A stretch of DNA of 64,000 nt from the NCBI GenBank assembly GCA_977017645.1, contig OZ360256.1, forward strand, positions 10,726,001 to 10,790,000, in the 5' to 3' direction. The DNA comes from Torpedo marmorata. Taxonomy: Eukaryota. The translations under genes were made by a program, and so were the position numbers. Each line of letters begins with the position of its first letter. Position 1 is the stretch's first letter. The notes under the pieces were generated by a model. The model was not told the DNA's origin. It ran no database searches and saw nothing but the letters and a program-made list of their open reading frames with translations. Positions 4,601 to 62,124 of this stretch are shown in pieces.

Positions 4601-7600
4601 CTCCTGATCCCCTTCCTCCATTTCTTTCTGTTAGCATTCTCTGCTCATGTTCACTCCAGAAGCTCACGTGTAACGCTTTTTTTCTCCCATTCGCTCTCCC
4701 TCCTCTTCCCTCTCTCCCTCTCCTTCACTCTCCCCTTCACATTTTCTCTCTCCCCTCCCCTATCTCCCCTTAACGTCTTTTGTCTCCCTCCTTCACCATC
4801 TCTTCCTCTACCCTCTATCTTCCCCTCCCCTTTTCTCTCCCCATCCCCACCTCTACCCCTCCCCCATCCCCTCTCTCCCTCCCCACCCCTTCTCTCTGCC
4901 CACCTCTCCCGCCCTGCCTCTCCCGCCCCGCCCTCTCTCCGTCCCCCTCTCTTCCTCCCCGCCTCTCTCTCTTTCCTTCCGTCTCCCTCTCTCGTTCCCC
5001 TCTCCTCCTCCCCGCCTCTCCCTTTCTCCATCCCCCTCTCCTCCTCCCCGTCTCTCCCTCTCTCTGTCCCCCTCTCCTCCCCGCCTCTCCGTCTCCCTCT
5101 CCTCCTCCCCCTCTCCCCACCTCTCTGTCCCCATCTCCCCCCACTTCTACCCCTTCCCCAACCCCCTCCCTTTCTCTCCCTCCCCTTCACTCCTCCCCCT
5201 CTCCCCCTCCCAACACCTCCCTCACCCCTTCCTTTTTTTCTCTCTCCCCATCCCTCTCTTCCCCACCCCCACTCCCCCAGGTCGGACCGACACGGATCGG
5301 TTCAGCTCGGCGATGTTCCGCTTCCACCTGGAGCTGTGGGTGTGGGAGGAGGTCGTTGCAGTGGGAGGGAGGAGCCCTGCGGTGGCCGGTCACTCCATGA
5401 TCTTCCACCCCGCCTCCCGTATGCTGCTGGTCCATGGAGGTCACCGGATCTCCCCACGGTGAGGCTCGTCACAGTGTCCCCGCGGCGAGGCTCGTCACGG
5501 TTTCCCGCGGCGAGGCTCGTCACGGTTTCCCGCGGCGAGGCTCGTCACCGTATCCCGCGGCGAGGCTCGTCACGGTTTCCCGCGGCGAGGCTCGTCACCG
5601 TATCCCTGCGGCGAGGGTCACCGTATCCCTGCGGCGAGGGTCACCGTATCCCCGCGACGAGGCTCGTCACCGTATATCCGCGGCGAGGCTCGTCACCGTA
5701 TCCCCGCGACGAGGTTCGTGACCGTATCCCCACGGCGAGGGTCGTCACGGTATACCCCGCAGCGAGGCTCGTCACCGTATCCCTGCGGCGAGGCTCGTCA
5801 CCATATCTCTGCGGCGAGGGTTGTCACGGTGTACCCTGCAGCGAGGCTCGACACAGTATCCCCGCGGTGAGGCTCGTCACCGTATCCCCACGGCGAGGGT
5901 TGTCACCGTAACCCCGTGGCGAGGGTCGTCACGGTGTTGCCCGCGGCGAGGCTCGACACCGTATCCCCGCGGCGAGGGTTGTCACGGTGTACCCCGCAGC
6001 GAGGCTCGACACCGTATCCCCGCGGCGAGGCTCGTCACCGTATCCCCGCGGCGAGGGCCGTCACCATATTGCCCGCGGCGAGGGTCGTCACCGTATCGCC
6101 CGCGGCGAGGCTCGACACCATATCCCCGTGGCGAGGGTCGTCACGGTGTACCCTGCAGCGAGGCTCGACACTGTATCTCCGCGGCGAGGGTCATCACCGT
6201 ATCGCCCGCGGCGAGGCTCGACACCGTATCCCCGTGGCGAGGGTCGTCACGGTGTTGCCCGCGGCGAGGCTTGACACCGTCTCCCCGCGGCGAGGGTCGT
6301 CATGGTGTACCCCGCAGCGAGGCTTGACACCGTATCCCCGCGGCGAGGCTCGTCACCGTATCCCCACGGCGAGGGTCGTCACGGTGTTGCCCGCGGCGAG
6401 GCTCGTCACCGTATCCCCGCGGCGATGGTCGTCACCGTATCCCCGTGGCGTGGCTCGTCACCGTATCCCCGCGACGAGGGTCGTCACCGTATCCCCGCGA
6501 CGAGGGTCGTCACCGTATCCCCGCGACGAGGGTCGTCACCGTATCCCCGCAGCGTGGCTCGTCACCGGGACCCCGGTGGTGGGGTACGTGCAGTCTTTCT
6601 CACCCCATTATAGGAGGATGTGGAGGCTTCACAGAGGGTGCAGATGTTCCCTGGATTGGAAGGTGTGGGCGATGGAGAGAGGTTGGAGTTTGTTTTCTCT
6701 GGAGTCAGTGGTGAAGGAGGCAAATGCAATGCTGGCATTCATTTCAAAAGGAATAGAATACGGGAGCAGGGATGTGATGTGATCACAATATGATTGAAGT
6801 GAAACATGACATTCTGCAGATGCTGCGATTGTAGTAACAAGACACAGAAACGCTGGAGAAACTCAGCCAGTCTCGCAGTGTCCATAGCAGGTAAAGGTGT
6901 ATTACTGACATTTCAGGCTTGAACCCTTCTTCAAGGTCTAAGCAAAGAACAGGAGGCGTCAGAATAAAGAGTGAAGACTGGCCGGGGAGGAGTCCAGACC
7001 AACAAAAGGTGTGAATTGGATATGATAAGAGGAAAGGTGAGAATTGGTGTTGGCTCTATGAAAGGAGACAGAGGGAAAAGGGAAGAGAGACAGAGCTGGG
7101 AGAAAGGCGATGGGGGGAAGAAGGGAGGTTGAACGGAAACCGGAGAAGTCCATCCGGTTGGAGGGTACCCGGACGGAAGATGAGGTGTTGTTCCTCCAAT
7201 TTGTGGGTGGTCTCAGTCTGGCAGTGCATGAGACCATGGGCAGACATGTCGGCAAGGGAATGGGACGGAGAATTGAAATGGGTGGCCACTGGGAGATCCA
7301 CGCTGTTGCAGCGGACAGAGCCGAGGTGCTCAAAGCGATCTCCCAGTCTGCACCCAGTCTCTCCGATGTAGAGGAGACCACAACAGGAGCAGCGGATGCA
7401 GTAGACGACCCCTGCAGATTCACAAGTGAGGTGTTGCTTCACTTGGAAGGACTGTTTGGGGTGATGAGCTTTTATAAGGCATTGGTGAGACCTCACTTGG
7501 AGTATTATGAGCAGTTTTGGGCTCCTCATTTAAGAAAGGATGTGCTGACGTTGGAGAGGGTTCAGAGGAAGTTCACAAGAATGATTCTGGGAATGAAAGG

Positions 7601-40600: not shown

Positions 40601-42310
40601 ACCCCCCGTAACGCCGTGTCCATGACACCATGACCCCGAGGGCCATTGCCCCTACGACCCTGCGTCCCTGACCCCGGTTCCCTCACCCGATGACCCTGAG
40701 GGTCACTGACCCCCGAGGGTCCGTGACTGTGTGACCCCGAGGATCCCAGACCCCATGTCTCTGACCTCCATGATCCTTGAGCCCGTGACCCTGACCCTGG
40801 GTCCTGGACCCCGTAACCACATAACTGAGGGTCACAAGCCCCACCCCATAACCCTGAAGTCCCTTACCCCGTGATCCTGAAGCCCTGACCCCAGGTTTGT
40901 AACCCTCGGTCCCCGACCCCATGGCCCTGATCCTGTGACCCTGTTATCCACTCCCTGGGACCCTGACCTCGGGGCCATGACCCCGTGACCCTGACCCCAT
41001 GACCCTGACCTCCATGATCCTTGACCCCGTGACCCTGACCCTGGGTCCTGGATCCCATGACCACATAACTGAGGGTCACGAGCCCCACCCCATAATCCTG
41101 AGGTCCCTTACCCCATGACCCTGAAGCCCTGACCCGAGGTTCGTGACCTGAGGTCCCTGACCCCGTGGCCCTGATCCTGTGACACTGTTATCCACTCCCT
41201 GGGGCCGTGACCCTGGGGCCATGACCCTATTATCCTGACCCCGGGACCCTGACCCCAGGATCCTGACCCGATGTCCCCGGGATCCTGACCCCGTAATGCT
41301 GACCCCATGACCCCGGGTCCCTGACCCCATGATCCTGGATCCCTGACCCCCATGACCTTGGGTCCCTGACCCTGTGACCCTGACCCGATGACCCCAGGTC
41401 CCTGACCCCCATGACACCGTCACCCTGACGCTGTGATCTGCTTCCAGACTGGACGATGGGGGAACTTTGTGAGCTGTGCCGGCCCGGTAGTTATGGCAAT
41501 GCCAGCGGTGCGGAGGGCTGCCGGCCCTGCGACTGTAACGGGCACGGAGTCCTCGCCCTGGGGGAGTGCGACAGGGTGACAGGAGTCTGTCACTGCACCG
41601 ACCACACCGAGGGAGACCACTGCCAGGTCTGCGCCGCCAGCTTCTATGGGGACCCAAGGTAAGGTGGAGAACCGGCGGTTTCACCTCACCCGGCACACAC
41701 CCCCCCACCCTGTACCCCTGTTACGACATCCTCCCACCCTGTACCCCCAGCACACCGTCCCCACCCCACCACCCTGTACCCCCAGCACACCGTCCCCACC
41801 CCACCACCCTGTACCCCCAGCACACCGTCCCCACCCCCCCCCACCCTGTACCTCCAACACACCGTCCCCACCCCCCACCCTGTACCCCCAGCACACTGTC
41901 CCCACCCCCCCCACCCTGTACCCCCAGCACACCATCCCCACCCCCCCACTCTGTACCCCCGGCACACCATCCCCACCCCACCACCCTGTACCCCCAGCAC
42001 ACCGTCCCCACCCCACCACCCTGTACCCCCAGCACACCATCCCCACCCTGTACCGCCCCACACCCCCCACCCCATACCCCCGTCACACCATCCCCACCCC
42101 GTACCCCCGTCACACCATCCCCACCCTGTACCCCTGTCACACCGTACATCCCCCACCCTGTACCCCCGTCACACCGTACACCCGGCACACCCCCCACTCT
42201 GTACCCCGTCACGCCGCGCCCCGTCGTGCTGCACCCCTGTCAAGTCGCACCCCGCGTGTGTGTGTGATGCAGTGATACCCCGCTTGCCTCTCTCCCCCAG
42301 GGATGGAGGG

Positions 42311-42357
<47 letters not shown>

Positions 42358-42931
42358 AGTAACCGCAGCCCGTCACCTCCCGCGCGTTCAACCCGTCATG
42401 CCGCCCCCATCACGCCACGCGCCCTCACCCCCCCGTGCCTTCCCTCACCCCCCACGAATTCCCCAACCTCCCACACATTCCCTCTGACTGTGTACCTGGA
42501 TCATTATGTGGAGGAGCGGTGCCTCTGTACCACCAGATCATTTTGTGTGATACAGTAACCTCGGAGTCTCTCTCCCAGGGACAGAGGCACATTCGTGTGT
42601 GTGTATGTGTTACAGTAAACCCCGCCTGCCTCTCTCCCCCAGAAATGGAGGGACCTGTCCGTGTGTGTGATACAGTAATCCCCGCTTGCCTTTCTCCCCC
42701 AGGGAAGGCGGGACCTGTCCGTGTAGGGTGAGTGTGTGCGTGTGATACACTAACCCCCGCTGCCTCTCTCCCCCAGAATCAGAGGGACCTGTCTCTGTGT
42801 GTGTGTGTGTGTGTGTGTTACAGTAACCCCCTGCCTGCCTCTCTTCCCCCAGGGACGGACGGACCTGTCGATGTGGAGTGAGTGTGATTCAGTAACTCCC
42901 GCCTGCCTCTCTCCCCCAGGGTCGGAGGGAC

Positions 42932-42962
<31 letters not shown>

Positions 42963-45900
42963 TGTGTGTGTGTGTGTGTTACAGTAACCCCCGCCTGCCT
43001 CTCCCCCAGGGTCGGAGGGACGTGTGTGTGTGTGTTACAGTAACCCCCGCCTGCCTCTCCCCCAGGGTCGGAGGGACGTGTGTGTGTGTTACAGTAATCC
43101 CCGCCTGCCTCTCTCCCCCAGGGACGGAGGGACCTGTCTGTGTGGGGTGAGTGTGATAGAGTAACTCCCGCCTGCCTCTCCCCCAGGGTCGGAGGGACCT
43201 GTGTGTGTGTGTTACAGTAACTCCCTCCTGCCTCTCTCCCCCAGGGACGGAGGGACCTGTCTGTGTGGGGTGAGTGTGATACAGTAACTCCCGCCTGCCT
43301 CTCTCCCCTAGGGACGGAGGGACCTGTTACCACGAGTGTGCCGGACGTTCCCTGTTGCTGAACGTGTCCTCCTCGGCGCTGGGCTCCCTCAGGGGCAGCG
43401 GCCTCTCCCCGAGTGGCCTGACCTACTGCCTGTGGGTGCTCTCCACCTCCGACTCCCTGGAGCCTTGCCAGGTCCAGGACTCCTGTCCCGTCATCAGTAT
43501 TACCATCCACTCGGACATCCAGATCCAATGCGGGGTGAGTGTGGGGATGGCTGGGTGGGGGGGTGCCTTGGTGTAGCCGAGAGATTATTGTCATACACGT
43601 GAGTACAATGTGCGGAGGCCCCAACATTCTTCCTTGCCGCGGCAACCCTGGGATGTTAGACACAGCAACTCCACTTGTACAAATTAAATCACTGCCCCAT
43701 GCCAAGACAGAGAAAGATATCATAACTGAAATATAATGTCGGAATGTGAACGTTCATGCACTTTGGTAGAAGAAATAAACAGGCAGACTATTTTCTAAAT
43801 GGGGATAAAATTGAAAATACCCAGATATCCTGAAGGTAAACATGCAGGTTGAGATGGTGGTGAAGAAGGCAAATGCAATGCTGGCGTTCATTTCAAGAGG
43901 AATAGAATATAAGAGCAGGGATGTGACGTTGAGTCTCTGTACGGCATTGGTGAGACCTCACTTGGAGTATTGTGAGCAGTTTTGGGCTCCTCGTTTAAGA
44001 AAGGATGTGCTGATGGTGGAGAGGGTTCAGAGGAGGTTCACAAGGACGATTCCGGGAATGAAAGGGTTATATGAGCAGCGTTTGACGGTTCTTGGTCTAT
44101 ATTCGATGGATTTTAGGAGAATGAGGGGGGGTCTCATTGATGGGGAGGGGGGTGGGGGAGAAGGAGGGATGGGATGTGGGAGGGGGTGGGGTGGGGAGGG
44201 GGTGGAAGGGGAGGAGGTGAGGTAGGATGGGGTGGGTGGGGAAGGGGGTGGGTGGGGAAGGGGGTGAGGTGGGATGGGGAGGAGGTGAGGTGGGATGGGG
44301 ATGGGGAGGAGGTGGGATGGGGAGGAGGATGGGGAGAGGGATTTGGGGGTGGGATGGGGGAGTGGGGGGGAGGAAATGGGATGGGGAGTAGAGAAAGGAT
44401 GAACTGGGAGTTGGGATAGGAACCGGGGCAGGTGCGCAGTGGGCTGAATGGCCTGATCCAGTGGGTACGTCCATAAGACAGTGACACCCCTCTCCCCGTT
44501 CCCCACCCACATCCCCTTTCTCCCCCCCTCTCACACTCCCTGCCCCCTTACCCCCCTCTATCGCCATCCCCATCTCACCCCTCTTCCCAACCCCCATCCT
44601 CCTTGCCCTCATCCTCTTCTACTGTCTTCCCACCCACCTACCCCGCTACCTGTCTCCCCGCACTGCCGTCACCATCCCCCCTCTCCTTCCGCTCTCTCCC
44701 TCCCCCTTGTCCCATACACCTTCCGCCCCCGTCCCCTCTCCCTCCTCCTCTCCCCACCCCCCTCCCCACCCTCATCCGCTCCCCACCCCCTCCCCTTTCC
44801 CGCTTTCTCACCCCATCCCCCTGCCTCTCCTTTCTCTCCCCTCCTCCTCTCCCCGTCCTTCTCTCCCCCTTTCTCTCCCCCTCTCTCTCCCCCTCCCCCT
44901 CTCTCCCCCTCCACCTCTCTCCCCTCCCGCTCTCTCTCCCTCTCTCCTCTTCCCCCCCCCTCCCGCTCTCTCCCCCTCCCTCTCCTCCACCACCCCCCCT
45001 GCAGCATGACTATGTTTACGTTTACGACGGCCTCCCGGCATTCCTGACTGGCTCCCAACCGGAGAGCGGCATCCACTCTGACTCCCGGCTGCTCGGGGCC
45101 TTCTGCGGCCAAGGGGGGGTCTCTCCCGTCACCGTCTCGGCGGTCTCAGGTAGGTGGGGGGGGCGGGGGACCGCGAGGAGGGTGGAGGTTTGTGTGGGGG
45201 GCCAGTCCGCGTGGGGTGGAGTTCTGTCCCCTTCACCCTGTCTTTCTGTTCCGGGGAGTGGTCCGTCTCCCATCATCTTCCCCATCCCTCTGTTCCAGGG
45301 GACGGTCCGTCCCCCATCCCCGTCTCTGTTCCGGGGGCGGTCCGTCCCTTTGTTCCAGTGGATGGTCCATCCCCCTTCACCTTCCCCATCCTTTGTTCCA
45401 GTGGATGGTCCATCCCCCTTCACCTTCCCCGTCTCTCAGTTCCAGGGGGTGGTCCATCCCGCTTCACCTTCCCCGTCTCTGTTCCAGGGGGTGGTCCATC
45501 CCCCTTCATCTTCCCCGTCTCTCTGTTCCAGGGGGCGGTCCGTCCCCCTTCATCTTCCCCGTCTCTCTGTTCCAGGGGGCGGTCCGTCCCCCTTCACCGT
45601 CCCTTTGTTCCAGTGGATGATCCATCCACCTTCACCTCCCCCGTCTCTCTGTACCAGGGGTTGGTCCGTCCCCCATCACCCTCCCCATTTCCCTTCATCC
45701 TCCCCGTTTCCCTTCACCCTCCCCGTCTCTCATTTCCAGGGGCTTGTCCGTCCCCCTACACCCTCCCCCGTTTCTCTGTTCCAGGGGGTGTTCCGTCCCC
45801 ACTCACCTTCCCCGTCTCTCCATCCCAGGGGCTGGTCCGTCCCCCTTCACCCTCCCCTGTCTCTCTGTTCCAGGGGGTGTTCCGTCCCCCTTCACCCTCC

Positions 45901-48900
45901 CCGTCTCTCATTTCCAGGGGTGCTGACTGTGTATTTCGAGGCCAATGTATCCCGTTCTGCCGGCGCTCAGTGGGAGAGTTTCAACGCCACCTTCACCGTG
46001 GGTGGCTGCCAGGGTCCGTGCCGGCCTCCGCTGCCTTGTGATCCGGCTACGGGCTGCCGTACCGAACACTGCCCCGGCAACTGCTCCTGGCACCTCGGGG
46101 CAGGGGTCTGCAACACGGTGAGTCCCAACGGGTCAGCAGTCCGTCACAAAGGGTGACCCCTCACCCCAGGGTCCGTCACAAAGGGTGTCCCCCACACCCC
46201 AGGGTCCGTCACAAAGTGTGTCCCCCACATCCCAGGGTCCGTCACAAAGTGTGTCCCCCACATCCCAGGGTCCATCACAAAGGGTGTCCCCCACACCCCA
46301 GGGTCCATCACAAAGGGTGTCCCCCACACCCCAGGGTCCATCACAAAGGGTGTCCCCCTCACCCCAGGGTCCGTCACAAAGTGTGTCCCCCTCACCCCAG
46401 GGTCCGTCACAAAGGGTGTCCCCCTCACCCCAGGGTCCGTCACAAAGTGTGTCCCCCACATCCCAGGGTCCATCACAAAGTGTGTCCCCCTCACCCCAGG
46501 GTCCGTCACAAAGTGTGTCCCCCACATCCCAGGGTCCATCACAAAGTGTGTCCCCCTCACCCCAGGGTCCGTCACAAAGTGTGTCCCCCTCACCCCAGGG
46601 TCCATCACAAAGTGTGTCCCCCTCACCCCAGGGTCCATCACAAAGTGTGTCCCCCTCACCCCAGGGTCCGTCACAAAGTGTGTCCCCCTCACCCCAGGGT
46701 CCATCACAAAGTGTGTCCCCCTCACCCCAGGGTCCGTCACAAAGTGTGTCCCCCACACCCCAGGGTCCGGAACAAAGTGTGTCCCGCACACCCCGGGGTC
46801 CGGAACAAAGTGTGTCCCGCACACCCCGGGGTCCGGAACAAAGTGTGTCCCCCACACCCCAGGGTCCGTCACAAAGGGTGTCCCCTACCTCCCGGGGTCC
46901 GTCACAAAGGGTGTCCCCCTCACCCCGGGGTCCGTCACAAAGGGTGTCCCCCTCACCCCGGGGTCCGTCACAAAGGGTGTCCCCTACCTCCCGGGGTCCG
47001 TCACTGTGTCCCTCCCAACCCGGGGTCCGTCCCAAATCCCCTGCACCCTGGGGGGAGGGGGACCGTTCCCGGTGTGCCTAGTGGGAGGGGGTAACATTCC
47101 CGGTGGGAGGGGCAGCATTCCCGGGGGAAGGGGGGACCGTTCCCGGTGTGCCGGGTGGGAGGGGGGAACATTCCCGGTGTGCCGGGGGGAGGGTGACTGT
47201 TCACTGTGTGCCGGGTGGGAGGGGGGAACATTCCCGGTGTGCCGGGTGGGAGGGGGGAACATTCCCGGTGTGCCGGGTGGGAGGGGGGAACATTCCCGGT
47301 GTGCCGGGTGGGAGGGGGGAACATTCCCGGTGTGCCAGAGGGATGGGGGGGTGTTCCCGGTGCCCGTGGGTGGGGTTTGTCGTGGACCTGAATCCCTGTG
47401 GTTGATCCCCAGGATTCAGGACGCTGCGACTGCGCAGACGGATTCGCTGGGACGGACTGTAGTTCCCGGACGTCTCCGGGGTCCCTCGTCTGGGAGATGC
47501 AGAGCGTAAGTCTCACCCCACCCCGTCTCAACTACCCCCCCCACCCCGACCTACCACTGATACCCCTTCTCCCCGGGGTGTGTGACCCCCGACCCCTCTC
47601 CCCGGTGTGTGACCCTGATCCCTCTCCCCTGTACGTGTGACCCCTGATCCCTCTCCCCGGCGCGTGTGACCCTTGACCCACTCTCCCCTGTGTGTGACCC
47701 TGATCCCTCTCCCCTGTACGTGTGACCCCTGATCCCTCTCCCCGGCGCATGTGACCCATGACCCACTCTCCCCTGTGTGTGACCCTGATCCCTCTCCCCT
47801 GCGCGTGTGACCCCTGAATTCTCCCCGGTGATTGTGACCCTTGACCTCTCGCCCCAGTGGCTGACTCTCTGCCCCTTGTGGATCTGCAGGACGGTGGACT
47901 GCCCCACCCTAGGCTCGGACACTCCATGACGGAGGGTCCCGCATCAACGCTCTGGGTATTTGGTGGCCTCTCGCTGCAGGAGGGTATCTTGGACAATCTG
48001 TACAGGTGAGGTATTGGCCCGTGGGCGCGGGAACTGCGGTGGGTCGCGTTCTTCTCCTCTCCCACCCCCCCCCTCCCCTACCCGCAGTGTCCCCACAGAT
48101 CGCAGTCCGGGGCCACAGTCAGCTCTGCGACCAGGAGACAGGAACGAGTGACTGACATGGGGCCGGAGACGGAGCTGGGGGGGCCGGAGACGGAGCCATG
48201 GAGGGCCGGGCAAGGGTGCATGGGGGCTGGGGGTCCCGGGAGATGAAACCGGGGGGGGGGGGGGGGGTTGCCGGTAAACGGAGCCGGGGGGGGGGGAGGC
48301 CGGGAGACGGAGCTAGGGGCCAGGAGACAGAGCTGGATGCCTGGGGACTGGCCCCCACCCACCCTGCCTGTCCCCACAGTTACTCGGTGACCCAGCGCCT
48401 GTGGAGCCAGGAGCTGCTCAGTGAGACCCCGGGTCCTAGTGCCCGCTACTTCCACGCCGCCGCCACCGACCCATCCCACCTCACTATGTTCGTGCTGGGG
48501 GGCCTGACTCCGACCGGGGTCACCAACGACTTCTGGCTGCTGAACATGTCGACGCTGGAATGGAGGCAGCAGCAGGTAGGGTCTGTCATGGATTCCCAGC
48601 TCCCCGGTGTGTGATGCCCAACCTCTCTGCCCGGCTACGGGTCTACTGGGGGTAACCTGGAGAAACCGTAGAGGGAGGGAAGTATCAGTCACTGGGGAAC
48701 TCTCTCCCCCTGATCCACACTCTCTCCCCCTGACCCAGACTCTCTCCCTCCTGACCCAGACTCTCTTCCCCTGACCCAGACTCTCTCCCCCTGACCCAGA
48801 CTCTCTCCCCCTGACCCAGACTCTCTCCCCCTGACCCGGAATCTCTTTACCTGACCCGGACTCTCTCCCCCTGACCCAGACTCTCTCCCCCTGACCCAGA

Positions 48901-54900: not shown

Positions 54901-57900
54901 GCCCCGCATGCAGCCCCAACGTAATGGCCCCCAGGTCCCCCGACTCCCTGTCCCCCGGTACTCCCCGGACCCTTGTCCCCGGGTCCCCCGACTCCCCGTT
55001 CCCCAGTACTCCCCGGGTCCCGTGACTCCCCGTCCCCCAGTAATCCCCGGATCCCTACTCCCGGGACCCCCGAAGGGAAGTGAGTGCAGTTACTATTTCA
55101 AGGGAGAAGGTGCTCAGAAAGCTGAATGGTCTAAGAGTGGATAAGTCTCCCAGATCAGATGGATTGCACCCTCATGTCCTGAAAGAGATAGCGGTAGAGA
55201 TTGTGAACGAATTGGTAATGATCTTTCAGGAATCAACAGATTCTGGTATGGTCCCGGAAGACTGGAAAATCACAAATATCACCCCACCATTCAAGAAGTG
55301 GGGGAGGCAGCAGAAAGGAAATTATAGCCCAGTTAGCCTGACGTCAGTGGTTGGGAAGATGTTGGAGTCTCTTGTCAAGAATGAGGTCATGGAGCACTTG
55401 GAGACACAGGACAGGATAGGTCAAACCCACCATGGTTTCCTGAAGGGAAGATCTTGCCTGACAAGCCTATTGGAATTCCTTGAGGAAGGGACAAGCAGGC
55501 TGGATAAGGGAGATGCAGTGGATGTTGTGTACAGTAAACTCCTGGTATTTGGCACTTATGGGGATTGGTAGATGCCGGATAAGTGTTTTTTCCCTTTGCT
55601 TGAGGTTTGGCGAAATAACAGCAAGGAGTGCCAATTTTAATCTTTCGTATTTTTTACCTATTTATTCTCATCGATTTTTTTTGTGCCGATTGCTTGAATT
55701 CCAGGATACCAGGGATTTTCCTGTATTTGGATTTTCAGAAGGCATTTGACAAGGTGCCGCACATGAGGCTACTTAACAAGAGCCCGTGGTATAACAGGAA
55801 ACATACGAGTGTGGGCTGATTGGCAGGAAGCAGAGAGTGGGAATACAGGGATCATATTCAGGTTGGCTGCCAGTCGCTAGTGGTGTTCCACAGGGTCGGT
55901 GTTGGGGCCGCTTCTCTTTATGTTGTATATTAATGACTTGGATTGTGGAATGAATGGCTTTGTGGCCAAGTTTGCAGACGATGCGAAGGCAGGTGGAGGA
56001 GCAGGTAGTGTTGAGGAAACGGAGTCTGCAGAAGGACGGAGAGATGAGGAGAATGGGCAGAGAAGTGAGTGGCAAATGAAATACAATGTCGGAAAGTGTA
56101 CGGTCACGCACTTTGGTGGAAAAAATAAACGGGCAGAAACCCCCCCCCCCAGATCGCTGATCACAGGATCTCCGTCCCTGAGACCCCCAGACCCTCACGG
56201 CCGGTGCCGAGACCCCTGGGGCCGGTGCCCAGACCCTCAGACTCCCGCGGCCGGTGCTGAGGTTGCCCTGACCCTGTGCTCTGTTTCCAGCCCCCCTCCC
56301 GGTTCTTCCACGCGGCAGGGCTCCTGCACAACACGGTGGTGGTGGTGGGTGGCAGGTCCCAGCACCGAGACTTCACCCACAACGTCCTTCTCTACCACAT
56401 CGGCACCAACACCTGGGTCAGGACCCATCCCACAGGTATGGGGGGGAGGGACGATGAACAGGGGGCCAGTAGGATGGGGACAGGAGGAAGGGGGAGATGG
56501 GAGACGGGGAAGGGGTGGGGAGGGGACGAGGTGAGGGGAGAGGAGGAAGGGGAGGGGGTCGAGTGGGGAGTGGACGGGGAGGAGTGGGGAGGGAACGGGG
56601 TGAGGGGTCGGGGAGTAGTGGGGAGGGAACGGGGTGAGGGGTCGGGGAGTAGTGGGGAGGGGACGGGGTGAGGGGTCGGGGAGGAGTGGGGAGGGGACGG
56701 GTGAGGGGTTGGGGAGGAGTGGTGAGGGGATGGGGTGAGGGGTCGGGGAGGTGGGGAGGGACCCCATTCAAACTCAAACACTCCCCTTGAAACGAATTCC
56801 AACTCTCTCTCTCTCCTTCCTCATTCTATCTTTCCCCCTCCCCTCTTTCCCCTCTCCCCTATCTCCTCCTCTCTCTCCCTCTCTCTCTCCCCCTCTCTCT
56901 CTCTCTCTCCCCCTCTCTCTCCTCCCCTCTCTCCCCCTCCCTTCCTCTCTCTCCTCCCCCTCTCCCCTCTCTATCCCCCTCTCTCTATCCCCCCTCTCTC
57001 CTCCCCTCTCTCCCCCTTCCCCCCTCCCTCTCCCCCTCTCTTTCCCCCTCTCTTTTCCCCCTCTCTTTTCCCCTCTCTCTCCCCCCTATCTCCCCCCTCT
57101 CTCTCCCCCTATCTCCCCCCTCTCTCTCCCCCTCTCGCCACCCTCCCCTCTCCTTCCCTCTCCCTCTCCCACCGCTCTTTCCCCCCACTCTCTACCCTTC
57201 TCTCCCCATCTCCCCCCCACCGCCTGCTCTCTATAGGGACGCCAGTGCTGGGGGAGCCTTTGAAAGGATCGATAGCCCAGGCAGCGGTCACCGTGGGGGA
57301 CAAGCTGTACGTGTCGGGGGGGTTCAGTGGGGTGATGCTGGGCTCCCTGGTATCTGTGTCCGTGCCCCTCAACCCGTGCCAGGTGTTCGGCAGCCCTGGA
57401 GACTGCAGCAACAGTACCGGCGGGTGTGTATGGTGTCGATCAGTGGACAATGGCAGCTGCCTGTCCATCGAGGAGGCCGACAGGTAGGGCAGCGAGCGCC
57501 GGCTCTACCGACGGGTGGACCTCACACACCCTCACTCCGTCAATCTGTTACCCATCACCTCCCACACTCACCACTCCTTTCTTCCCTCTCCCCCCTCGCT
57601 CTCACCCTCCCCTCCCTCTCCCCCTCCCCTCCCTCTCCCCCTCCCTCTCCCCTTCCCCTCCCACCCTCCCTCTCCTCCTCCCCCTCCCTCTCTCCCTTCC
57701 CCCTCCCTCCCCCCAGCAATTCCTCCCTCTCTGCGTCACTCTCTCATTCTCCATCCCTCAAACCCTCCACCCCCATCCCTCTCCGCACCTCTCTCACCCT
57801 CCATTCTCCCTCTCACTCCCCTGATACCCTCCCCTTTCTCCTGCCCATCACCTCTCCCCATCCGGGGACACTGACTCCTATGGCTGGATTCTGAACCCCC

Positions 57901-60900
57901 CCCCCCCTCTGAGGTTGGAGGGGGAGGGTTGTTGATAATCTCTCTGCATATCTGTCCTGGTGCAACCCCTACCTCTTCCCCCCCCTTATTTCCCTGCTCT
58001 GACCCCCCTCTCCACTCCCCTCCCCATCCCCCTTAACCCCTCCCTCCTCTCCCCTTCTTCCACCCCCCTGTCCTCCTCCCACTCTCCCCCTCCACATGCA
58101 TCTCCCACCCCTCCCGATTCCCTCACCTCCCTCATCCCCCCGTCTCCTGCCCGTGACCCCTCTCCCTCTCCTTCCCCATGCCCATCCCAGCTTCCCCCAT
58201 GCCCCTCCACTCCCCCACCCCCTACTCCCTCACCCCCCCTTAACTCACCCCTTACCCCCACTTTCTCCTGCCCAACCCCTCCCCCTCCCCTCCCCATTTC
58301 TCCTCTCCATGCCCCACTCTCCCCTCCCCGCATGCTCCTCCCTCTCATCTCCATATCCCCTCCCCTATCCTTTCTCTGCAGGTGGCCCCGAAACACGGAC
58401 CCCTCCCCCTGACCCATGCCCCCTCTCTCTGCAGATTACCCCGGGATGTGGACCCCTCCCCCTGACCCATGCCCCCTCTCTCTGCAGATTACCCCGGGAT
58501 GTGGACCCCTCCCCCTGACCCATGCCCCCTCTCTCTGCAGATTACCCCGAGACGCGGACCCCTCCCCCTGACCCATGCCCCCTCTCTCTGCAGATTACCC
58601 CGGAATGTGGACCCCTCCCCCTGACCCATGCCCCCTCTCTCTGCAGATTACCCCGGGATGTGGACCCCTCCCCCTGTGACCCGTGGCCCCGACTCTCGGA
58701 GCCCTGCCGACATTTGAAGACGTGCAGCGAGTGTTTGGCCCTTCACCCCCAGATCGCGGGGCAGACACAGCGGCAGGTGAGTGACAGCCCGTGACCTCTC
58801 ACCCCACAGAGCCACGCCCCGTGACCTCTCACCCCACAGAGCCCCACCCCACAACCTCGCCCCGCCCCGTGACGTCTCACACCACAGAGCCCCACCCAGT
58901 GACTTCTCACCTCACAGAAACCCATCCCGTGACCTCTCACACCACAGAGCCCCGCCCCACGACCTCACCCCACAGAGCCCTGCCCCACGACCCTCACCCC
59001 GCAGAGCCCTGCCCCGTGACCTCTCACCCCACAGAGCCCCGCCCCGTGACCTCACACCACAGAGCCCCGCCCCACGACCTCACCCCACAGAGCCCTGCCC
59101 CACGACCCTCACCCCGCAGAGCCCTGCCCCGTGACCTCTCACCCCACAGAGCCCCGCCCCGTGACCTCTCACACCACAGAGCCCCGCCCCACGACCTCAC
59201 CCCACAGAGCCCTGCCCCACGACCCTCACCCCACAGAGACCCACCCAGTGACTTCTCACCTCACAGAAACCCATCCCGTGACCCCTCATCCCACAGATCC
59301 GCCCTGTGACCCCTCACCCCAAAGATCCGCCCCGAGACCTCTCATCCCACAGAGACCCGCCCCACGACCTCTCACCTCACAGTGACCTCTCACCCCACTG
59401 AGACCCACAACACGACCCCTCACCCCACACAGATCCGCCCTGTGACCTCTCACCCCACAGAGGCACGCCCTGAGACTGCTGACACGGAGCCTCGTGCATA
59501 TTCGTGACACATAACCCATCCTCCCTCTCCCCCCATTCCCGGCCTCTGATTGGCTCCCTCAGTCCCGGGCTCTGATTGGCTCCTTCAGTCCCTGGCCTCT
59601 GATTGGCTCCCTCAGTCCCCAGCCTCTGATTGGCTCCCTTAATCCCCGGCCTGTGATTGGCTTCCTCAATCCCTGGCCTGTGATTGGCTCCCTCAAACCC
59701 CGGCCTGTGATTGGCTCCCTCAATCCCCAGCCTGTGATTGGCTCCCTCAGTCCCCGGCCTCTGATTGGCTCCCTCAGTCCCCGGGCTCTGATTGGCTCCC
59801 TCAGTCCCTGGCCTCTGATTGGCTCCTTCAGTCCCCAGGCTCTGATTGGCTCCCTCAGTCCCCAGCCTCTGATTGGCTCCCTCAATCCCCGGCCTGTGAT
59901 TGGCTCCCTCAATCCCCGGTCTGTGATTGGCTCCCTCAATCCCAGGCCTCTGATTGGCTCCCTCAGTCCCTGGGCTCTGATTGGCTCCCTCAGTCCCCGG
60001 CCTCTGATTGGCTCCCTCAATCCCCAGCCTGTGATTGGCTCCCTCAATCCCCGGCCTGTGATTTGCTCCCTCAATCCCCGGGCCTCTGATTGGATTCCTC
60101 AATCCTCGGGCTGTGATTGGCTCCCTGTTGCTCCGTCCGTATTGTGATTGGCTCCCTCAGTCCCTGGCCTGTGATTAGCTCCCTCAATCCCTGGCCTATG
60201 ATTGGCTCCGTTTTGCTCTGTACGGCATGTGAATACCTCCCTCATACCCCGGCCTGTGATTGGCTCTCTCAGTCCCTATCCTCTGATTGGCTACCTCAGT
60301 CTCCAGCCTCTGATTGGCTCCCTGAGTCTCCGGTCTCTGATTGGCTCCCTCTTGTGCTGTTCAGAGGTGTAAGTGGTGCACGCATTGTCCCGAGGGGGCC
60401 TGCATCAGCGCCAACGCCAGCTGCAGCAAAGAGAACGACTGCCGCATCAACCAGCGCGAGATCTTCCTCGCTGGCAACTGCACCGAGATCTCATGTGAGG
60501 CATCTGACTGCTACAAGTGTACGGCGTCCAGCAAGTGTATGTGGACCCGCCAATTCAAACGCACAGGTAAGCCCGTGTACTCGGACCTGCCCGCTTAAAC
60601 GCTCGGGTAACCTCGTGTACGCAGACCTGCCCACTCAAACGCACAGGTAGCCTCGTGTACGCAGACCTGCCCGCTCAAACGCACGGGTAAACTCGAGTAC
60701 GCGGACCTGCCCGTTCAAACACGCAGGTAAACTCGATTACGCGGACCTGCCCATTCAAACACACAGGTAAACTCGAGTAAGCGGACTTGCCCGTTCAAAC
60801 ACGCAGGTAAACTCGAGTACGCGGACTTGCCCGTTCAAACACACAGGTAAACTCGAGTACGTGGACCTGCCCATTCAAACACGCAGGTAAACTCGAGTAA

Positions 60901-62124
60901 GCGGACTTGCCCGTTCAAACACGCAGGTAAACTCGAGTACGCGGACCTGCCCATTCAAACACACAAGTAAACTCGAGTACGCGGACCTGCCCATTCAAAC
61001 ACACAAGTAAACTCGAGTACGCAGACCTGCCCGTTCAAACACGCAGGTAAACTTGAGTACGCGGACCTGCCCATTCAAACACGCAGGTAAACTCGAGAAC
61101 ACGGACCTGCCCATTCAAACACGCAGGTAAACACAAGTACGCGGACCTGCCCATTCAAACACGCAGGTAAACTGGAGTACGCAGACCTGCCCATTCAAAC
61201 ACGCAGGTAAACTCGAGTAAGCGGACCTGCCCATTCAAACACGCAGGTAAACTGGAGTACGCAGACCTGCCCATTCAAACACGCAGGTAAACTCGAGTAC
61301 GCGGACCTGCCCATTCAAACACACAAGTAAACTCGAGTACGCGGACCTGCCCATTCAAACACGCAGGTAAACTCGAGAACACGGACCTGCCCATTCAAAC
61401 ACGCAGGTAAACTCGAGAACACGGACCTGCCCATTCAAACACGCAGGTAAACACAAGTACGCGGACCTGCCCATTCAAACACGCAGGTAAACTGGAGTAC
61501 GCAGACCTGCCCATTCAAACACGCAGGTAAACTCGAGTACGCGGACCTGCCCGTTCAAACACGCAGGTAAACTCGAGTACGCAGACCTGCCCATTCAAAC
61601 ACGCAGGTAAACTCGAGTACGCGGACCTGCCCGTTCAAACACGCAGGTAAACACGAGTACGTGATCCTGCCCATTCAAACACGCAGGTAAACTCGAGTAC
61701 GCGGACCTGCCCGTTCAAACACGCAGGTAAACACGAGTACGTGATCCTGCCCATTCAAACACGCAGGTAAACTCGAGTACGCGATCCTGCCTGTTCAAAC
61801 ACGCAGGTAAACTTGAGTACGCGGACCTGCCCTTTCAAACGCGCAGGTAAACTCGAGTACGCGGACCTGCCCGTTCAAACGCACGACTGACCTGGTGCTT
61901 TGGTTCCAGGGGAGACGCGGCGCATCCTCAGCGTCAGTCCAACCTACGACTGGACCTGCTTCAGCCACTCGCTCCGCAACGTGTCCCCCATGCCCGTGGA
62001 GTCGTCGCCCCCAGCACCCTGCCCCACCCCCTGCCACCGGCTCACCGCCTGCCCCGACTGCCTGGCCTCCACCGGTGCCGACGGCGGCTGGCAGCGCTGC
62101 GTCTGGAGTTTGGCCCTGAGGCAG
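1423..62124 (+). CDS. MEGF8: MEGF8 (multiple EGF-like domains 8), partial multi-exon gene: 30 distinct exons, 9 of them present twice
   Basis: Spliced translation has MEGF8 motifs ([47 protein letters not shown]; [12 protein letters not shown]; [46 protein letters not shown]). All introns are GT-AG and exon phases join correctly. Confidence 0.96.
2020..3250. repeat. ~29-bp minisatellite GTGTGAGCAGTGTAGGAGTGTGAGGGTGG
   Basis: Direct tandem copies. Confidence 0.9.
3275..4615. repeat. ~31-bp minisatellite ACACTGATCCCCTTCCCCCACACCTGGTGTA
   Basis: Direct tandem copies. Confidence 0.9.
5281..5458 (+). CDS. MEGF8: MEGF8 exon B (kelch)
   Basis: Long pyrimidine tract + CAG; [17 protein letters not shown]...[26 protein letters not shown]; donor GTGAGG. 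Confidence 0.9.
5459..6570. repeat. ~26-bp CpG-rich minisatellite GAGGCTCGTCACCGTATCCCCGCGGC derived from the exon B donor junction
   Basis: Tandem copies align to GTCACCGGATCTCCCCACG|GTGAGGCTCGTCAC. Confidence 0.85.
6700..8030 (+). mobile_element. CR1-type LINE 3' fragment, interrupted by a Penelope element
   Basis: [23 protein letters not shown] / [39 protein letters not shown]; [16 protein letters not shown]. Confidence 0.85.
6781..7460 (-). mobile_element. Penelope-like element 3' fragment (GIY-YIG endonuclease and terminal repeat)
   Basis: [41 protein letters not shown]; degenerate hammerhead-like motif at ~6900-6940; GTGATG on both flanks. Confidence 0.85.
8305..8835. repeat. Degenerate TTCTTG(C/T)G low-complexity repeat
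   Basis: T/G/C-rich short-period repeat. Confidence 0.8.
9020..9165 (+). CDS. MEGF8: MEGF8 exon C (kelch)
   Basis: [18 protein letters not shown]...[19 protein letters not shown]; CAG / GTGAGT. Confidence 0.93.
9408..9828 (-). mobile_element. Solo LTR (421 bp), antisense to MEGF8
   Basis: TG...CA ends; GCAG TSD at 9404-9407 and 9829-9832; minus-strand TATAAAAA (9571-9578) followed by AATAAA (9467-9472). Confidence 0.8.
10373..11050 (-). mobile_element. Penelope-like insertion with inverted terminal segment and 14-bp TSD
   Basis: [24 protein letters not shown]; TTGGTTTTGCTAAC at 10359-10372 and 11051-11064; GCTGGAGAAACTCAGCAGGTCA inverted at ~10978-10999. Confidence 0.85.
10434..10474 (-). 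ncRNA. Minimal type I hammerhead-ribozyme-like motif (Penelope-associated; U at core position 3)
   Basis: Minus strand CATACT-TTGATGA-A-GGGC-TCAA-GCCC-GAAAC-GTC-GGTTATG; same motif at 22852-22892. Confidence 0.6.
11290..11486 (+). mobile_element. CR1-type LINE fragment
   Basis: [19 protein letters not shown]...[19 protein letters not shown]. Confidence 0.75.
11487..12370 (-). mobile_element. Penelope-like element 3' fragment (GIY-YIG)
   Basis: [43 protein letters not shown]; degenerate hammerhead-like motif at ~11552-11592. Confidence 0.85.
12386..12717. repeat. ~23/24-bp minisatellite TTTTGGTGTGGGGATCGTGGAGCG
   Basis: Tandem copies; also at ~24805-25138. Confidence 0.85.
12772..12897 (+). 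CDS. MEGF8: MEGF8 exon D (copy 1)
   Basis: [34 protein letters not shown]; CAG / GTGAGT. Confidence 0.92.
13618..13775 (+). CDS. MEGF8: MEGF8 exon E (copy 1, kelch)
   Basis: [35 protein letters not shown]; CAG / GTGAGT. Confidence 0.92.
14551..14658 (+). CDS. MEGF8: MEGF8 exon F (copy 1, PSI)
   Basis: [29 protein letters not shown]; CAG / GTGAGG. Confidence 0.92.
14695..16300. repeat. Degenerate GTGACGGTTCGTTGACGTGCG repeat, CpG-rich
   Basis: Tandem copies fill intron F-G; also at ~27120-28735. Confidence 0.85.
16327..16474 (+). CDS. MEGF8: MEGF8 exon G (copy 1, PSI)
   Basis: [22 protein letters not shown]...[15 protein letters not shown]; CAG / GTAACC. Confidence 0.92.
16782..16945 (+). 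CDS. MEGF8: MEGF8 exon H (copy 1)
   Basis: [18 protein letters not shown]...[19 protein letters not shown]; CAG / GTGAGT. Confidence 0.92.
17543..17734 (+). CDS. MEGF8: MEGF8 exon I (copy 1; symmetric phase 0-0, 192 nt)
   Basis: [31 protein letters not shown]...[19 protein letters not shown]; CAG / GTGAGT. Confidence 0.88.
18848..19048 (+). CDS. MEGF8: MEGF8 exon J (copy 1)
   Basis: [19 protein letters not shown]...[21 protein letters not shown]...SEMTLTWER; CAG / GTGAGT. Confidence 0.9.
19058..20120. repeat. ~33-36-bp VNTR GGAGTGTATCCCCCTGGAATACCGTGCCCCTTCCC (short allele)
   Basis: Tandem copies; the copy-2 array is 714 bp longer. Confidence 0.9.
20749..20979 (+). CDS. MEGF8: MEGF8 exon K (copy 1, PSI)
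   Basis: [33 protein letters not shown]...[15 protein letters not shown]; CAG / GTGAGT. Confidence 0.92.
21102..21217. mobile_element. 116-bp mini solo-LTR / TRIM-like insertion
   Basis: TGTCGCGG...CCGCTACA inverted ends; GATC/GACC flanks; interrupts a CAGACCC repeat; also at 34250-34365. Confidence 0.55.
21455..21567 (+). CDS. MEGF8: MEGF8 exon L (copy 1, PSI)
   Basis: [37 protein letters not shown]; CAG / GTGAGC. Confidence 0.9.
21672..21771. other. 100-N scaffold gap between the two duplicated blocks
   Basis: Exactly 100 N. Confidence 0.95.
21853..22246 (-). mobile_element. Solo LTR, copy 2 (27-bp deletion)
   Basis: Same TG...CA ends and GCAG TSD. Confidence 0.75.
22247..24788 (-). mobile_element. 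Copy 2 of the Rex-like LINE / Penelope / CR1 / Penelope cluster
   Basis: ORFs 22156-22710, 23078-23305 and 24227-24745 match those in copy 1. Confidence 0.8.
25193..25318 (+). CDS. MEGF8: MEGF8 exon D (copy 2)
   Basis: Same sequence and splice sites as 12772-12897. Confidence 0.85.
26039..26196 (+). CDS. MEGF8: MEGF8 exon E (copy 2)
   Basis: Same as 13618-13775. Confidence 0.85.
26973..27080 (+). CDS. MEGF8: MEGF8 exon F (copy 2)
   Basis: Same as 14551-14658. Confidence 0.85.
28761..28908 (+). CDS. MEGF8: MEGF8 exon G (copy 2)
   Basis: Same as 16327-16474. Confidence 0.85.
29216..29379 (+). CDS. MEGF8: MEGF8 exon H (copy 2)
   Basis: Same as 16782-16945. Confidence 0.85.
29977..30168 (+). 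CDS. MEGF8: MEGF8 exon I (copy 2)
   Basis: Same as 17543-17734. Confidence 0.85.
31282..31482 (+). CDS. MEGF8: MEGF8 exon J (copy 2)
   Basis: Same as 18848-19048. Confidence 0.85.
31492..33268. repeat. ~33-36-bp VNTR (long allele)
   Basis: Same unit as 19058-20120. Confidence 0.9.
33897..34127 (+). CDS. MEGF8: MEGF8 exon K (copy 2)
   Basis: Same as 20749-20979. Confidence 0.85.
34603..34715 (+). CDS. MEGF8: MEGF8 exon L (copy 2)
   Basis: Same as 21455-21567; continues without a gap to exon M. Confidence 0.88.
35541..35672 (+). CDS. MEGF8: MEGF8 exon M (PSI)
   Basis: [43 protein letters not shown]; CAG / GTAGCT. Confidence 0.93.
35745..37262. mobile_element. Inverted pair of Penelope-like terminal repeats with an expanded CT-rich internal tract
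   Basis: GCTGGAGAAACTCAGCAGGTCACGCAGCATC at the left end is the reverse complement of GATGCTGCGTGACCTGCTGAGGTTCTCCAGC at the right end; hammerhead-like motif in each arm. Confidence 0.75.
37487..37650 (-). mobile_element. tRNA-derived V-SINE (HE1-like), internally deleted
   Basis: V-domain GAGGAAACCGGAACACCCGGAGGAAACCCACG; minus-strand B-box GGTTCGAATC. Confidence 0.7.
37872..38175. repeat. ~28-bp repeat CTGGGCGAGCTGACCCCTGACCTTTGCC running into the exon N acceptor
   Basis: Tandem copies. Confidence 0.8.
38185..38298 (+). CDS. MEGF8: MEGF8 exon N (PSI)
   Basis: [37 protein letters not shown]; CAG / GTAGGG. Confidence 0.92.
38668..38985. repeat. ~24-31-bp repeat GACTGTCTGTGACCCCGTCTGGTGTCTGGG
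   Basis: Tandem copies. Confidence 0.8.
39017..39265 (+). CDS. MEGF8: MEGF8 exon O (calcium-binding EGF)
   Basis: CVPGDF...[50 protein letters not shown]; CAG / GTGAGT. Confidence 0.93.
39502..39686 (+). CDS. MEGF8: MEGF8 exon P (EGF / laminin-EGF)
   Basis: [26 protein letters not shown]...[10 protein letters not shown]...CDQCQ; CAG / GTAATG. Confidence 0.93.
39960..40460. mobile_element. CR1 3' fragment (+) joined to a Rex-like LINE fragment (-)
   Basis: [23 protein letters not shown] on +; [31 protein letters not shown] on -. Confidence 0.7.
40480..41430. repeat. Degenerate (TGACCCC)n repeat
   Basis: Dense CTGACCCC/ATGACCC motifs. Confidence 0.75.
41448..41658 (+). CDS. MEGF8: MEGF8 exon Q (laminin-EGF)
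   Basis: [34 protein letters not shown]...[21 protein letters not shown]; CAG / GTAAGG. Confidence 0.93.
41695..42210. repeat. ~34-bp C/A-rich repeat CCCTGTACCCCCAGCACACCGTCCCCACCCCACCA
   Basis: Tandem copies. Confidence 0.85.
42265..43311 (+). repeat. Tandem copies of the exon R acceptor junction separated by (GT)n
   Basis: About 12 x TACAGTAACYCCCGCCTGCCTCTCTCCCCCAG|GGACGGAGGGACCTGT. Confidence 0.9.
43312..43534 (+). CDS. MEGF8: MEGF8 exon R (start of second CUB)
   Basis: [25 protein letters not shown]...[10 protein letters not shown]...IQIQCG; TAG / GTGAGT. Confidence 0.92.
43730..44140 (+). mobile_element. CR1-type LINE fragment
   Basis: [45 protein letters not shown]. Confidence 0.85.
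45005..45149 (+). CDS. MEGF8: MEGF8 exon S (CUB)
   Basis: [14 protein letters not shown]...[24 protein letters not shown]; CAG / GTAGGT. Confidence 0.92.
45225..45917 (+). repeat. ~44-bp repeat copying the exon T acceptor
   Basis: CCCCTTCACCTTCCCCGTCTCTCTGTTCCAG|GGGGTG units. Confidence 0.85.
45918..46117 (+). CDS. MEGF8: MEGF8 exon T (CUB end, Cys-rich linker)
   Basis: [12 protein letters not shown]...[14 protein letters not shown]...[17 protein letters not shown]; CAG / GTGAGT. Confidence 0.9.
46139..47005. repeat. 33-bp minisatellite CCCCAGGGTCCGTCACAAAGTGTGTCCCCCTCA
   Basis: About 26 tandem copies. Confidence 0.92.
47065..47365. repeat. ~31-bp repeat CCGGTGTGCCGGGTGGGAGGGGGGAACATTC
   Basis: Tandem copies. 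Confidence 0.8.
47413..47505 (+). CDS. MEGF8: MEGF8 exon U (EGF end)
   Basis: [31 protein letters not shown]; CAG / GTAAGT. Confidence 0.9.
47890..48005 (+). CDS. MEGF8: MEGF8 exon V (kelch)
   Basis: [38 protein letters not shown]; CAG / GTGAGG. Confidence 0.9.
48380..48575 (+). CDS. MEGF8: MEGF8 exon W (kelch)
   Basis: YSVTQRLW...[12 protein letters not shown]...[30 protein letters not shown]; CAG / GTAGGG. Confidence 0.92.
48698..54062. repeat. 5.4-kb ~21-bp satellite CTGACCC(G/A)GACTCTCTCCCC with higher-order ~1.37-kb duplication
   Basis: Tandem copies; matching ORF translations at 51518 and 52883. Confidence 0.92.
54067..54238 (+). CDS. MEGF8: MEGF8 exon X (kelch)
   Basis: [13 protein letters not shown]...[27 protein letters not shown]...TAPT; CAG / GTAGGG. 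Confidence 0.92.
54651..54814 (+). CDS. MEGF8: MEGF8 exon Y (kelch)
   Basis: [27 protein letters not shown]...[12 protein letters not shown]; CAG / GTAACG. Confidence 0.93.
55075..56137 (+). mobile_element. CR1-type LINE reverse-transcriptase fragment
   Basis: [16 protein letters not shown]...PEDWK...[13 protein letters not shown]...[13 protein letters not shown]...[16 protein letters not shown]...[12 protein letters not shown]...KFADD. Confidence 0.9.
55532..55723. mobile_element. 192-bp Tc1/mariner-pogo-type MITE inside the CR1
   Basis: TA TSD; TIRs CAGTAAACTCCTGGTAT / ATACCAGGGATTTTCCTG; excision restores [12 protein letters not shown]. Confidence 0.8.
56291..56435 (+). CDS. MEGF8: MEGF8 exon Z (kelch)
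   Basis: [42 protein letters not shown]; CAG / GTATGG. Confidence 0.92.
57237..57483 (+). CDS. MEGF8: MEGF8 exon AA (kelch, PSI)
   Basis: ...[29 protein letters not shown]...CVWCRS...CLSIEEAD; TAG / GTAGGG. Confidence 0.92.
58365..58676 (+). repeat. 53-bp tandem copies of the exon AB acceptor junction
   Basis: AG ends at 58381, 58434, 58487, 58540, 58593 and 58646. Confidence 0.92.
58647..58776 (+). CDS. MEGF8: MEGF8 exon AB (PSI)
   Basis: [34 protein letters not shown]; only the last of six tandem CAG acceptors keeps the frame open; donor GTGAGT. Confidence 0.9.
58788..59465. repeat. ~28-30-bp repeat GTGACCTCTCACCCCACAGAGCCCCGCCCC
   Basis: Tandem copies. Confidence 0.85.
59538..60350. 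repeat. 27-bp repeat GGCCTCTGATTGGCTCCCTCAGTCCCC (an inverted CCAAT in nearly every unit)
   Basis: Tandem copies. Confidence 0.9.
60365..60566 (+). CDS. MEGF8: MEGF8 exon AC
   Basis: [14 protein letters not shown]...[17 protein letters not shown]...[11 protein letters not shown]; CAG / GTAAGC. Confidence 0.95.
60537..61884 (+). repeat. 40-bp tandem array of the exon AC donor junction
   Basis: GCGGACCTGCCCATTCAAACACGCAG|GTAAACTCGAGTAC at an exact 40-bp period. Confidence 0.95.
61910..62124 (+). CDS. MEGF8: MEGF8 exon AD (PSI)
   Basis: [43 protein letters not shown]...[17 protein letters not shown]; CAG / GTGAGC. Confidence 0.95.

Follow-up and report, generated by a model that had tools for sequence, protein, structure and literature searches.

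Minisatellites that lie across splice junctions have been described in human F7 (IVS7, with a 37-bp unit), IFI6/6-16 intron 2, CBS intron 13, LMNB2 and PDGF intron 4, and in these F7-type repeats the end unit spans the junction and an intact splice site is reiterated into the intron, with the authentic site in the exon-proximal position (excerpted text of PMC1557585). Site use has been measured in these systems, with the exon-proximal donor alone being used in F7 IVS7, and the two nearest donor pseudo-sites being used in IFI6 and CBS intron 13 (PMC1557585). A duplication of an acceptor junction is described for CBS 844ins68, in which an intron/exon junction is duplicated in tandem, splicing goes to the distal copy and takes out the upstream piece of exon, and normal mRNA results (PMC2630376; the sites are called 'donor' in that paper, though the duplicated junction is that of intron 7/exon 8).

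The array in MEGF8 that we describe here shares with the F7-type repeats a tandem unit within 10-100 nt in several copies (58397-58676, period 53, 5.3 copies, 96% matches with TRF), an end unit across the junction and the reiteration of the splice site in the intron, and the protein comes from its exon-proximal site, as judged by frame and homology only. It differs from them in that they are known from measured site use and the MEGF8 array from sequence alone, and in that they duplicate 5' sites, for which scanning and exon definition predict the same site, whereas for the duplicated 3' site of MEGF8 the two predict opposite ends of the array. CBS 844ins68 consists of two copies from a single polymorphic event, in contrast to six copies in MEGF8, where the branch point in use is apparently exon-derived. 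In the literature as covered here, multi-copy donor arrays and a two-copy acceptor are already known and a multi-copy acceptor array is the new side; a search of partial coverage found no tested multi-copy acceptor-spanning minisatellite, and the excerpts of PMC10078293 contain nothing on such repeats. By its anatomy, the MEGF8 array is an acceptor-side variant of the junction-spanning minisatellites, and it is most likely neutral.

Three further bodies of work bear on this locus. The cross-exon proximity rule (Carranza et al. 2022, PMC9225289) concerns a configuration like that of MEGF8, with sites of equal strength and flanking introns longer than 250 nt, and predicts the site yielding the shortest exon; its minigene tests, in the text excerpted, are for 5' sites only, and for human 3' sites of the exon-definition class the upstream preference is 'significantly reduced', with no reversal stated, human data overall favouring the upstream 3' site. 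Work on internal tandem repeats and on intronization (PMC2812944, PMC2891723) describes exon sequence that turns into intron after duplication, as in MEGF8, with premature stops being usual and present in all 18 tandem-duplication intron sequences (PMC2891723); MEGF8 differs from these cases in that it gains no new intron: the intron already there grows longer, and the protein junction stays unchanged. Small shark chromosomes (PMC10620051) and the mouse pseudoautosomal region (PMC13050634) resemble MEGF8 in high GC3 and repeat-filled introns, whereas the repeats copying splice junctions that we find in the window are not described in the excerpts of these two papers.

The acceptor array of MEGF8

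The window (the whole stretch of 64,000 nt of Torpedo marmorata DNA that was analysed) contains 30 modelled exons, the model being built from tblastn with 12 named non-human proteins and phase checks. Colinear tblastn matches over most of these exons place them in MEGF8, and by homology the gene is MEGF8 of a cartilaginous fish. The exon on which the identity is based, at 60365..60566, is 87-88% identical to MEGF8 of Rhincodon, Mustelus, Scyliorhinus and Pristiophorus and 73-83% identical to that of bony vertebrates (named hits), and conserved exons of the gene are 80-88% identical to their homologues. Exons 2-30 (with the duplicated block described below counted once) comprise 1,634 codons without a stop and have a GC3 of 0.82. 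Exon sizes have a median of 168 and a maximum of 249 nt (n = 30), and 28 of the 29 introns are longer than 250 nt. The features around the array are as follows.

57237..57483 (+): exon AA of MEGF8, upstream, 247 nt, with phase 2 at its end; covers the last part of a kelch repeat and the first part of a PSI domain
57484..58381 (+): intron sequence outside the array, C/T-rich for the most part; ends in acceptor 1 (AG 58380-58381)
58382..58434 (+): unit 1, eight differences from the exon in nt 1-15 and none in nt 16-30; ends in acceptor 2
58435..58487 (+): unit 2, first 30 nt equal to the exon; ends in acceptor 3
58488..58540 (+): unit 3, same sequence as unit 2; ends in acceptor 4
58541..58593 (+): unit 4, three differences from the exon, all common to unit 1; ends in acceptor 5
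58594..58646 (+): unit 5, one difference from the exon, common to unit 1; ends in acceptor 6
58647..58776 (+): exon AB of MEGF8, 130 nt with an open frame in its phase; identity of 49-58% with MEGF8 of sharks and bichir
58777..58782 (+): donor of exon AB, CAG/GTGAGT, strong; matrix score 13.2 (not leave-one-out)
60365..60566 (+): next MEGF8 exon, 87-88% identity to shark MEGF8

Exon AA is assigned by tblastn to named MEGF8 proteins, and its domain matches (Kelch_1, E 9e-4; PSI, E 0.016) are both below curated cut-offs; a homologue search with exon AA alone gave no match, and PDB sequence searches gave generic kelch and PSI matches only. The homologues are predicted proteins of other species and speak to the protein, not to RNA or introns. 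None of the nine homologues spanning the AA-AB junction has an insertion there (11 of the 12 are among the matches listed, two of them uninformative), and sharks have nine residues from the junction Arg to a conserved Cys, the same number as is given by the sixth AG.

The anatomy, the reading frames, the homology and the census of sister arrays are direct observations. As the initial annotation had reported, six tandem 3' splice sites 53 nt apart precede exon AB; these are TCTCTGCAG acceptors of the YAG type, ending at 58381, 58434, 58487, 58540, 58593 and 58646. The four nearest upstream acceptors had been described as equal to the real one, and the 38 nt upstream are indeed identical in acceptors 2-6, in all of which CTGAC puts an A at -23. 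Acceptor 1 has an upstream tract unlike that of the others and only a CTCAT at -35. Downstream, the first 30 bases are identical for AGs 2, 3 and 6. Unit 5 supplies the predicted branch point (CTGAC, 58621-58625), the tract and the AG of the sole acceptor that keeps the frame. Use of acceptors 1-6 would give exons of 395, 342, 289, 236, 183 and 130 nt, respectively; the sizes of 183-395 nt for the five upstream sites, which had been called plausible, stand as numbers, with only 183 and 236 falling within the range of the gene, so that AGs 1-3 would yield exons longer than any of its 30.

The earlier observation that the five upstream acceptors lead straight to a stop also holds: spliced from the exon end at 57483, each of them meets TGA at codon 11, with 152-364 nt left to the exon end. 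Only the sixth AG (58646) leaves the exon open, keeps the frame and matches the homologues. Stops are expected because 53 is not a multiple of three. With all unit TGAs masked, AGs 1, 2, 4 and 5 (four of the five) still lead to a stop by frameshift, at 59-97 nt from the exon end. Masking does remove the stop of AG 3, which is in frame; its three units are read in three different frames, and it would therefore meet a TGA located anywhere in the unit. The arrangement of the stops is no design feature, and only their immediacy is a one-in-three coincidence.

Origin of the 53-nt unit

The exon part of the unit had been put at about 29 nt. This is too short, as the unit matches exon nt 1-55 in 48 of 56 alignment columns, which suggests a composition of about 42 nt derived from the exon and 11 nt from the intron. 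For unit nt 31-42, 10 of 12 positions agree with exon nt 33-44 and 4 of 12 with the intron before AG 1; for unit nt 43-53, 10 of 11 agree with the end of the intron before AG 1. When the 3' 23-mer of the unit is compared with coding sequence, exon nt 33-55 (58679-58701) rank first of 4,459 coding 23-mers (score 26, next 25), a score reached by 1 of 5,000 shuffles, with the other 29 acceptors scoring at most 19; the exon-derived origin was noticed after inspection, and its P values are post hoc. The likeness most likely ran from the exon to the repeat, because the exon codons concerned are conserved in sharks. We regard it as likely that the exon was the source of the branch point in present use and of some of its tract, which points to a route by which the branch point of an acceptor may arise from coding sequence with the protein junction unchanged.

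The following history would account for the units. The first AG (58381) was probably the ancestral acceptor. A tandem duplication of about 55 nt would have copied the last 11 or so nt of the intron and the first 44 or so nt of the exon, helped by the likeness of the intron end to exon nt 47-55, and the upstream copy would then have turned into intron. The loss of 2 nt from the Cys-Asp codons of this upstream copy would have produced CTGAC, at once a consensus branch point and an in-frame TGA. Four further units would have been added by unequal exchange within an identical 15-nt block (unit nt 16-30). If exchange took place within this block, later units should combine a 5' end of the exon type with a 3' end of the unit-1 type, and this is what is observed; all four deviations of units 4 and 5 are unit-1 states, and judged by the unit sequences unit 1 is the oldest copy. 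Alternatively, a chance likeness of the old intron end to the exon may have triggered the duplication.

The eight variable columns of the array are all confined to unit nt 1-15 (P = 7e-6 on a uniform expectation), with none in nt 16-53. At face value this suggests that the decoy signals are conserved, but the clustering probably reflects recent descent from one template together with CpG content, there being no CpG in unit nt 16-53, and the proposed exchange would account for it as well. We dropped the idea that selection had strengthened the new tract, as only two substitutions fall in unit nt 31-42 (with an 11-nt intron share), too few to support an argument. At 58149 (within 58140-58200) there is a further 10/12 match to exon nt 33-44, found at 1 of 886 positions, which may be an older remnant, now decayed, of the duplication proposed above.

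Copies at other junctions

To place the array among the junctions of its gene, we counted junctions that have a copy of themselves in the adjacent intron, with AG or GT required. Of the 29 acceptors, 3 have such copies, and of the 29 donors 5 (8/58 junctions), and swapped-intron controls gave none (0/812 acceptors and 0/812 donors, null 0/1,624); for the acceptors, the absence of any copy among the 812 queries excludes chance as their source. This strict census undercounts the copies themselves (one at 45918, two at 60566), and the copy numbers below come from pattern matching and TRF. A looser census (6/29 donors and 4/29 acceptors, null 7 and 15 of 812) was discarded, since it admitted matches lacking GT or AG and missed the 45918 array; it had also taken an acceptor at 47858, which was replaced by 47890 on phase. 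The sister arrays are as follows.

5440..6567 (+): donor array at donor 5458, 26-nt unit, about 43 copies
42301..43312 (+): acceptor array, 12 upstream copies of tract, CAG and exon start; real TAG acceptor at 43312
45299..45918 (+): acceptor array at acceptor 45918, 44-nt unit, 13.5 copies (TRF), 12 upstream CCAG copies (pattern)
60543..61880 (+): donor array at donor 60566, 40-nt unit, 32 downstream copies, all with GT

The real site at 43312 scores below 11 of its 12 decoys in the crude matrix. In the donor array at 60566, GT is present in 32/32 copies, but the +5 G is mostly absent, whereas most units at 5440..6567 have lost GT, the 23 pattern-matched ones comprising 16 with GC, 5 with AC and 2 with GT, one of the latter being the real donor. 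Acceptor arrays with 5, about 12 and about 12 decoys occur naturally in this one gene; their decoys are at least as strong as the real site, and junction reads from MEGF8 would test 3' site choice among identical competitors. Such arrays will also mislead annotation and the mapping of short junction reads, as with AGs 2, 3 and 6, which share 30 nt.

Repeats pervade the introns as well. TRF masks 57% of the window, and 2,733 of 4,200 intronic 20-mers (about 65%) are repeated, a figure inflated by low-complexity tracts. Repeated 20-mers occur at 22/29 positions 100 nt before acceptors, at 2/29 at the junction and at 0/29 from 30 nt into the exons. Junction repeats are rarer than the intron background, and this fits a gene-wide origin of the repeats with survival at junctions only when harmless.

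Several smaller observations concern these repeats. Four of the 12 decoys before the 43312 exon (42703, 42853, 43122 and 43245) are followed after exactly 25 nt by GTGAGTGT, and two of them have the same 11-mer as the real donor of that exon at 43534, forming 25-nt pseudo-microexons. Dispersed partial copies of exon ends with donors lie at 16945-17380, 17894 and 38450-38522, 160-431 nt downstream of the real donors. In the large intronic arrays at 48660-54066, 59483-60350, 13450-13600 and 40480-41410, the units are similar to the next acceptor's branch-point and tract region, and these arrays reach that acceptor without copying the exon.

Acceptor choice and assembly

The acceptor matrix, a crude one built from the gene's other 29 acceptors, scores AGs 2-6 at 12.5 each and AG 1 at 17.4 (leave-one-out median 7.7). 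Since AGs 2-6 score identically and AG 1 higher, position or downstream context must choose the site. Reed and Maniatis are said to have worked on duplicated 3' sites in 1986. The acceptors differ in their distance to the donor and in the rest of the exon that follows, and given introns longer than 250 nt exon definition predicts AG 6. The exon-proximal donor of F7 and the distal duplicate of CBS 844ins68 lend this prediction indirect support; the upstream preference of human 3' sites, reduced but with no reversal stated, and the strength of the decoys speak against it. The donor of exon AB is strong, its 13.2 (itself not leave-one-out) comparing with a leave-one-out donor median of 9.9 in a similarly crude matrix. 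[quoted passage not shown] Some minor, NMD-sensitive use of AG 5 or AG 4 is plausible, because IFI6 and CBS intron 13 use their two nearest pseudo-donors. RNA structure was rejected as a discriminator, as the self-complementary acceptor octamer is paired in the predicted fold at all six AGs, including the real one, and 9 of 100 shuffles fold equally well (z = -1.49).

The explanation we favour, and hold to be probable, is a junction-spanning minisatellite without selected function in a repeat-saturated, GC-rich MEGF8, in which exon definition picks the innermost AG and NMD clears leakage; its history, site choice and NMD are what we infer, with the splicing outcome predicted from the DNA.

If instead leakage were heavy and unselected, the upstream AGs or exon skipping would take a large share of the transcripts, and the array would be a tolerated hypomorphic allele. 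Co-transcriptional first-come recognition would favour the upstream AGs, as the human 3' data do (PMC9225289), AG 1 has the top score, and in F7 the movement of the usable donor away from the exon led to more skipping (PMC1557585). Three acceptor arrays and several donor arrays would compound such a loss, yet exons 2-30 are open and the conserved exons still retain 80-88% identity, and we consider heavy leakage unlikely.

The initial annotation had offered two readings of the array, a built-in poison-splicing rheostat or a test of proximity-based exon definition. The latter is reasonable, given that AGs 2-6 score equally, and the former has found no positive support. In poison exons and AS-NMD, an alternative splice choice places a premature stop upstream of the next junction and more than 55 nt away from it. 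The stops of the MEGF8 array are alike in this distance, every one of them lying beyond both 50 and 55 nt, but here they follow from the unit length and therefore need no design, and copies are found at 8/58 junctions. A selected rheostat would imply regulated or copy-number-dependent use of the upstream AGs, with NMD lowering the dose of MEGF8, a negative regulator of hedgehog signalling (PMC11220001). It would agree with the full branch point, tract and AG retained by decoys 2-5, with the invariance of unit nt 16-53 and with the 183- and 236-nt exons, which are normal for the gene; invariance of the decoy branch points and tracts is also expected from recent expansion of one template. Against it, similar copies lie at seven other junctions, and the region is an ordinary exon without insertion in sharks and bony vertebrates. 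The MEGF8 literature, as far as the search covered it, yielded no poison acceptor, and the excerpts of PMC10227441 describe intronic polyadenylation in intron 1 instead; human MEGF8 disease is biallelic, so that modest changes in dose are probably buffered. A selected rheostat is accordingly rated as quite improbable.

A bolder version combines the origin and the leakage, with an acceptor made from former codons (Cys-Asp-Pro to branch point) and moved by 265 nt through repeat expansion, and with decoy arrays of variable copy number whose leak, in step with that number, would act as a heritable NMD dial on the dose of a hedgehog inhibitor. This we regard as a long shot, the improbable element being the dial, whereas the exon-derived origin by itself is likely; a dial of this kind at the three acceptors would possibly be general in GC-rich, repeat-filled genes of cartilaginous fish.

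It is also very doubtful that the assembler created the array or some of its copies. The window does contain 1,095 N, a duplication across a 100-N gap and an apparent 1-nt frameshift in exon 1423-1637, and the length of another array is not the same in the two duplicated copies, the difference being about 714 nt. The five units, however, comprise four distinct sequences that differ by substitutions (7/8 transitions) with shared variant states and 0 indels, not the identical copies or indel-type differences of an assembly expansion; units 2 and 3 are the only identical pair, which leaves about one unit at most in doubt. Least probable is a recursive rescue, in which splicing to AG 58381, the top-scoring acceptor and one followed by GTGG, would rebuild a donor for a second splice to AG 6 that removes the array, since a donor rebuilt in this way reaches only 5.3, less than the gene's weakest real donor (leave-one-out minimum 5.9 in a crude 30-site matrix), and AGs 2-5 would still have to be skipped.

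Other features of the window concern its assembly and its interspersed repeats. A tandem duplication of 12.4-13.1 kb (9547-21671 against 21966-34819, 97.5% over 10.7 kb) is interrupted by a gap of 100 N at 21672-21771, and nine exons are identical in both of its copies; as these total 1,441 nt, the frame would shift if the duplication were real, and it is probably a false duplication. The 35-36 nt array within it (19057-20126 against 31491-33274) is the one with the length difference of about 714 nt between copies (the exon offset goes from 12,434 to 13,148), from either allelic length variation or assembly error. In the first modelled exon, 1423-1637, about nine residues match the homologue before the match continues in another frame, with a 1-nt frameshift near 1447-1450 that lies near N gaps and is probably a sequencing error. 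The segment at 55056-56185 is like an interspersed repeat, and a weak match of one of its frames to RVT_1 (E 0.002, under the cut-off) suggests a LINE fragment. On the minus strand at 9741-10367, a stop-free intronic frame matches Pfam ALKBH8_N over 29 residues (E 1e-6, above the cut-off), a match that is probably repeat-derived.
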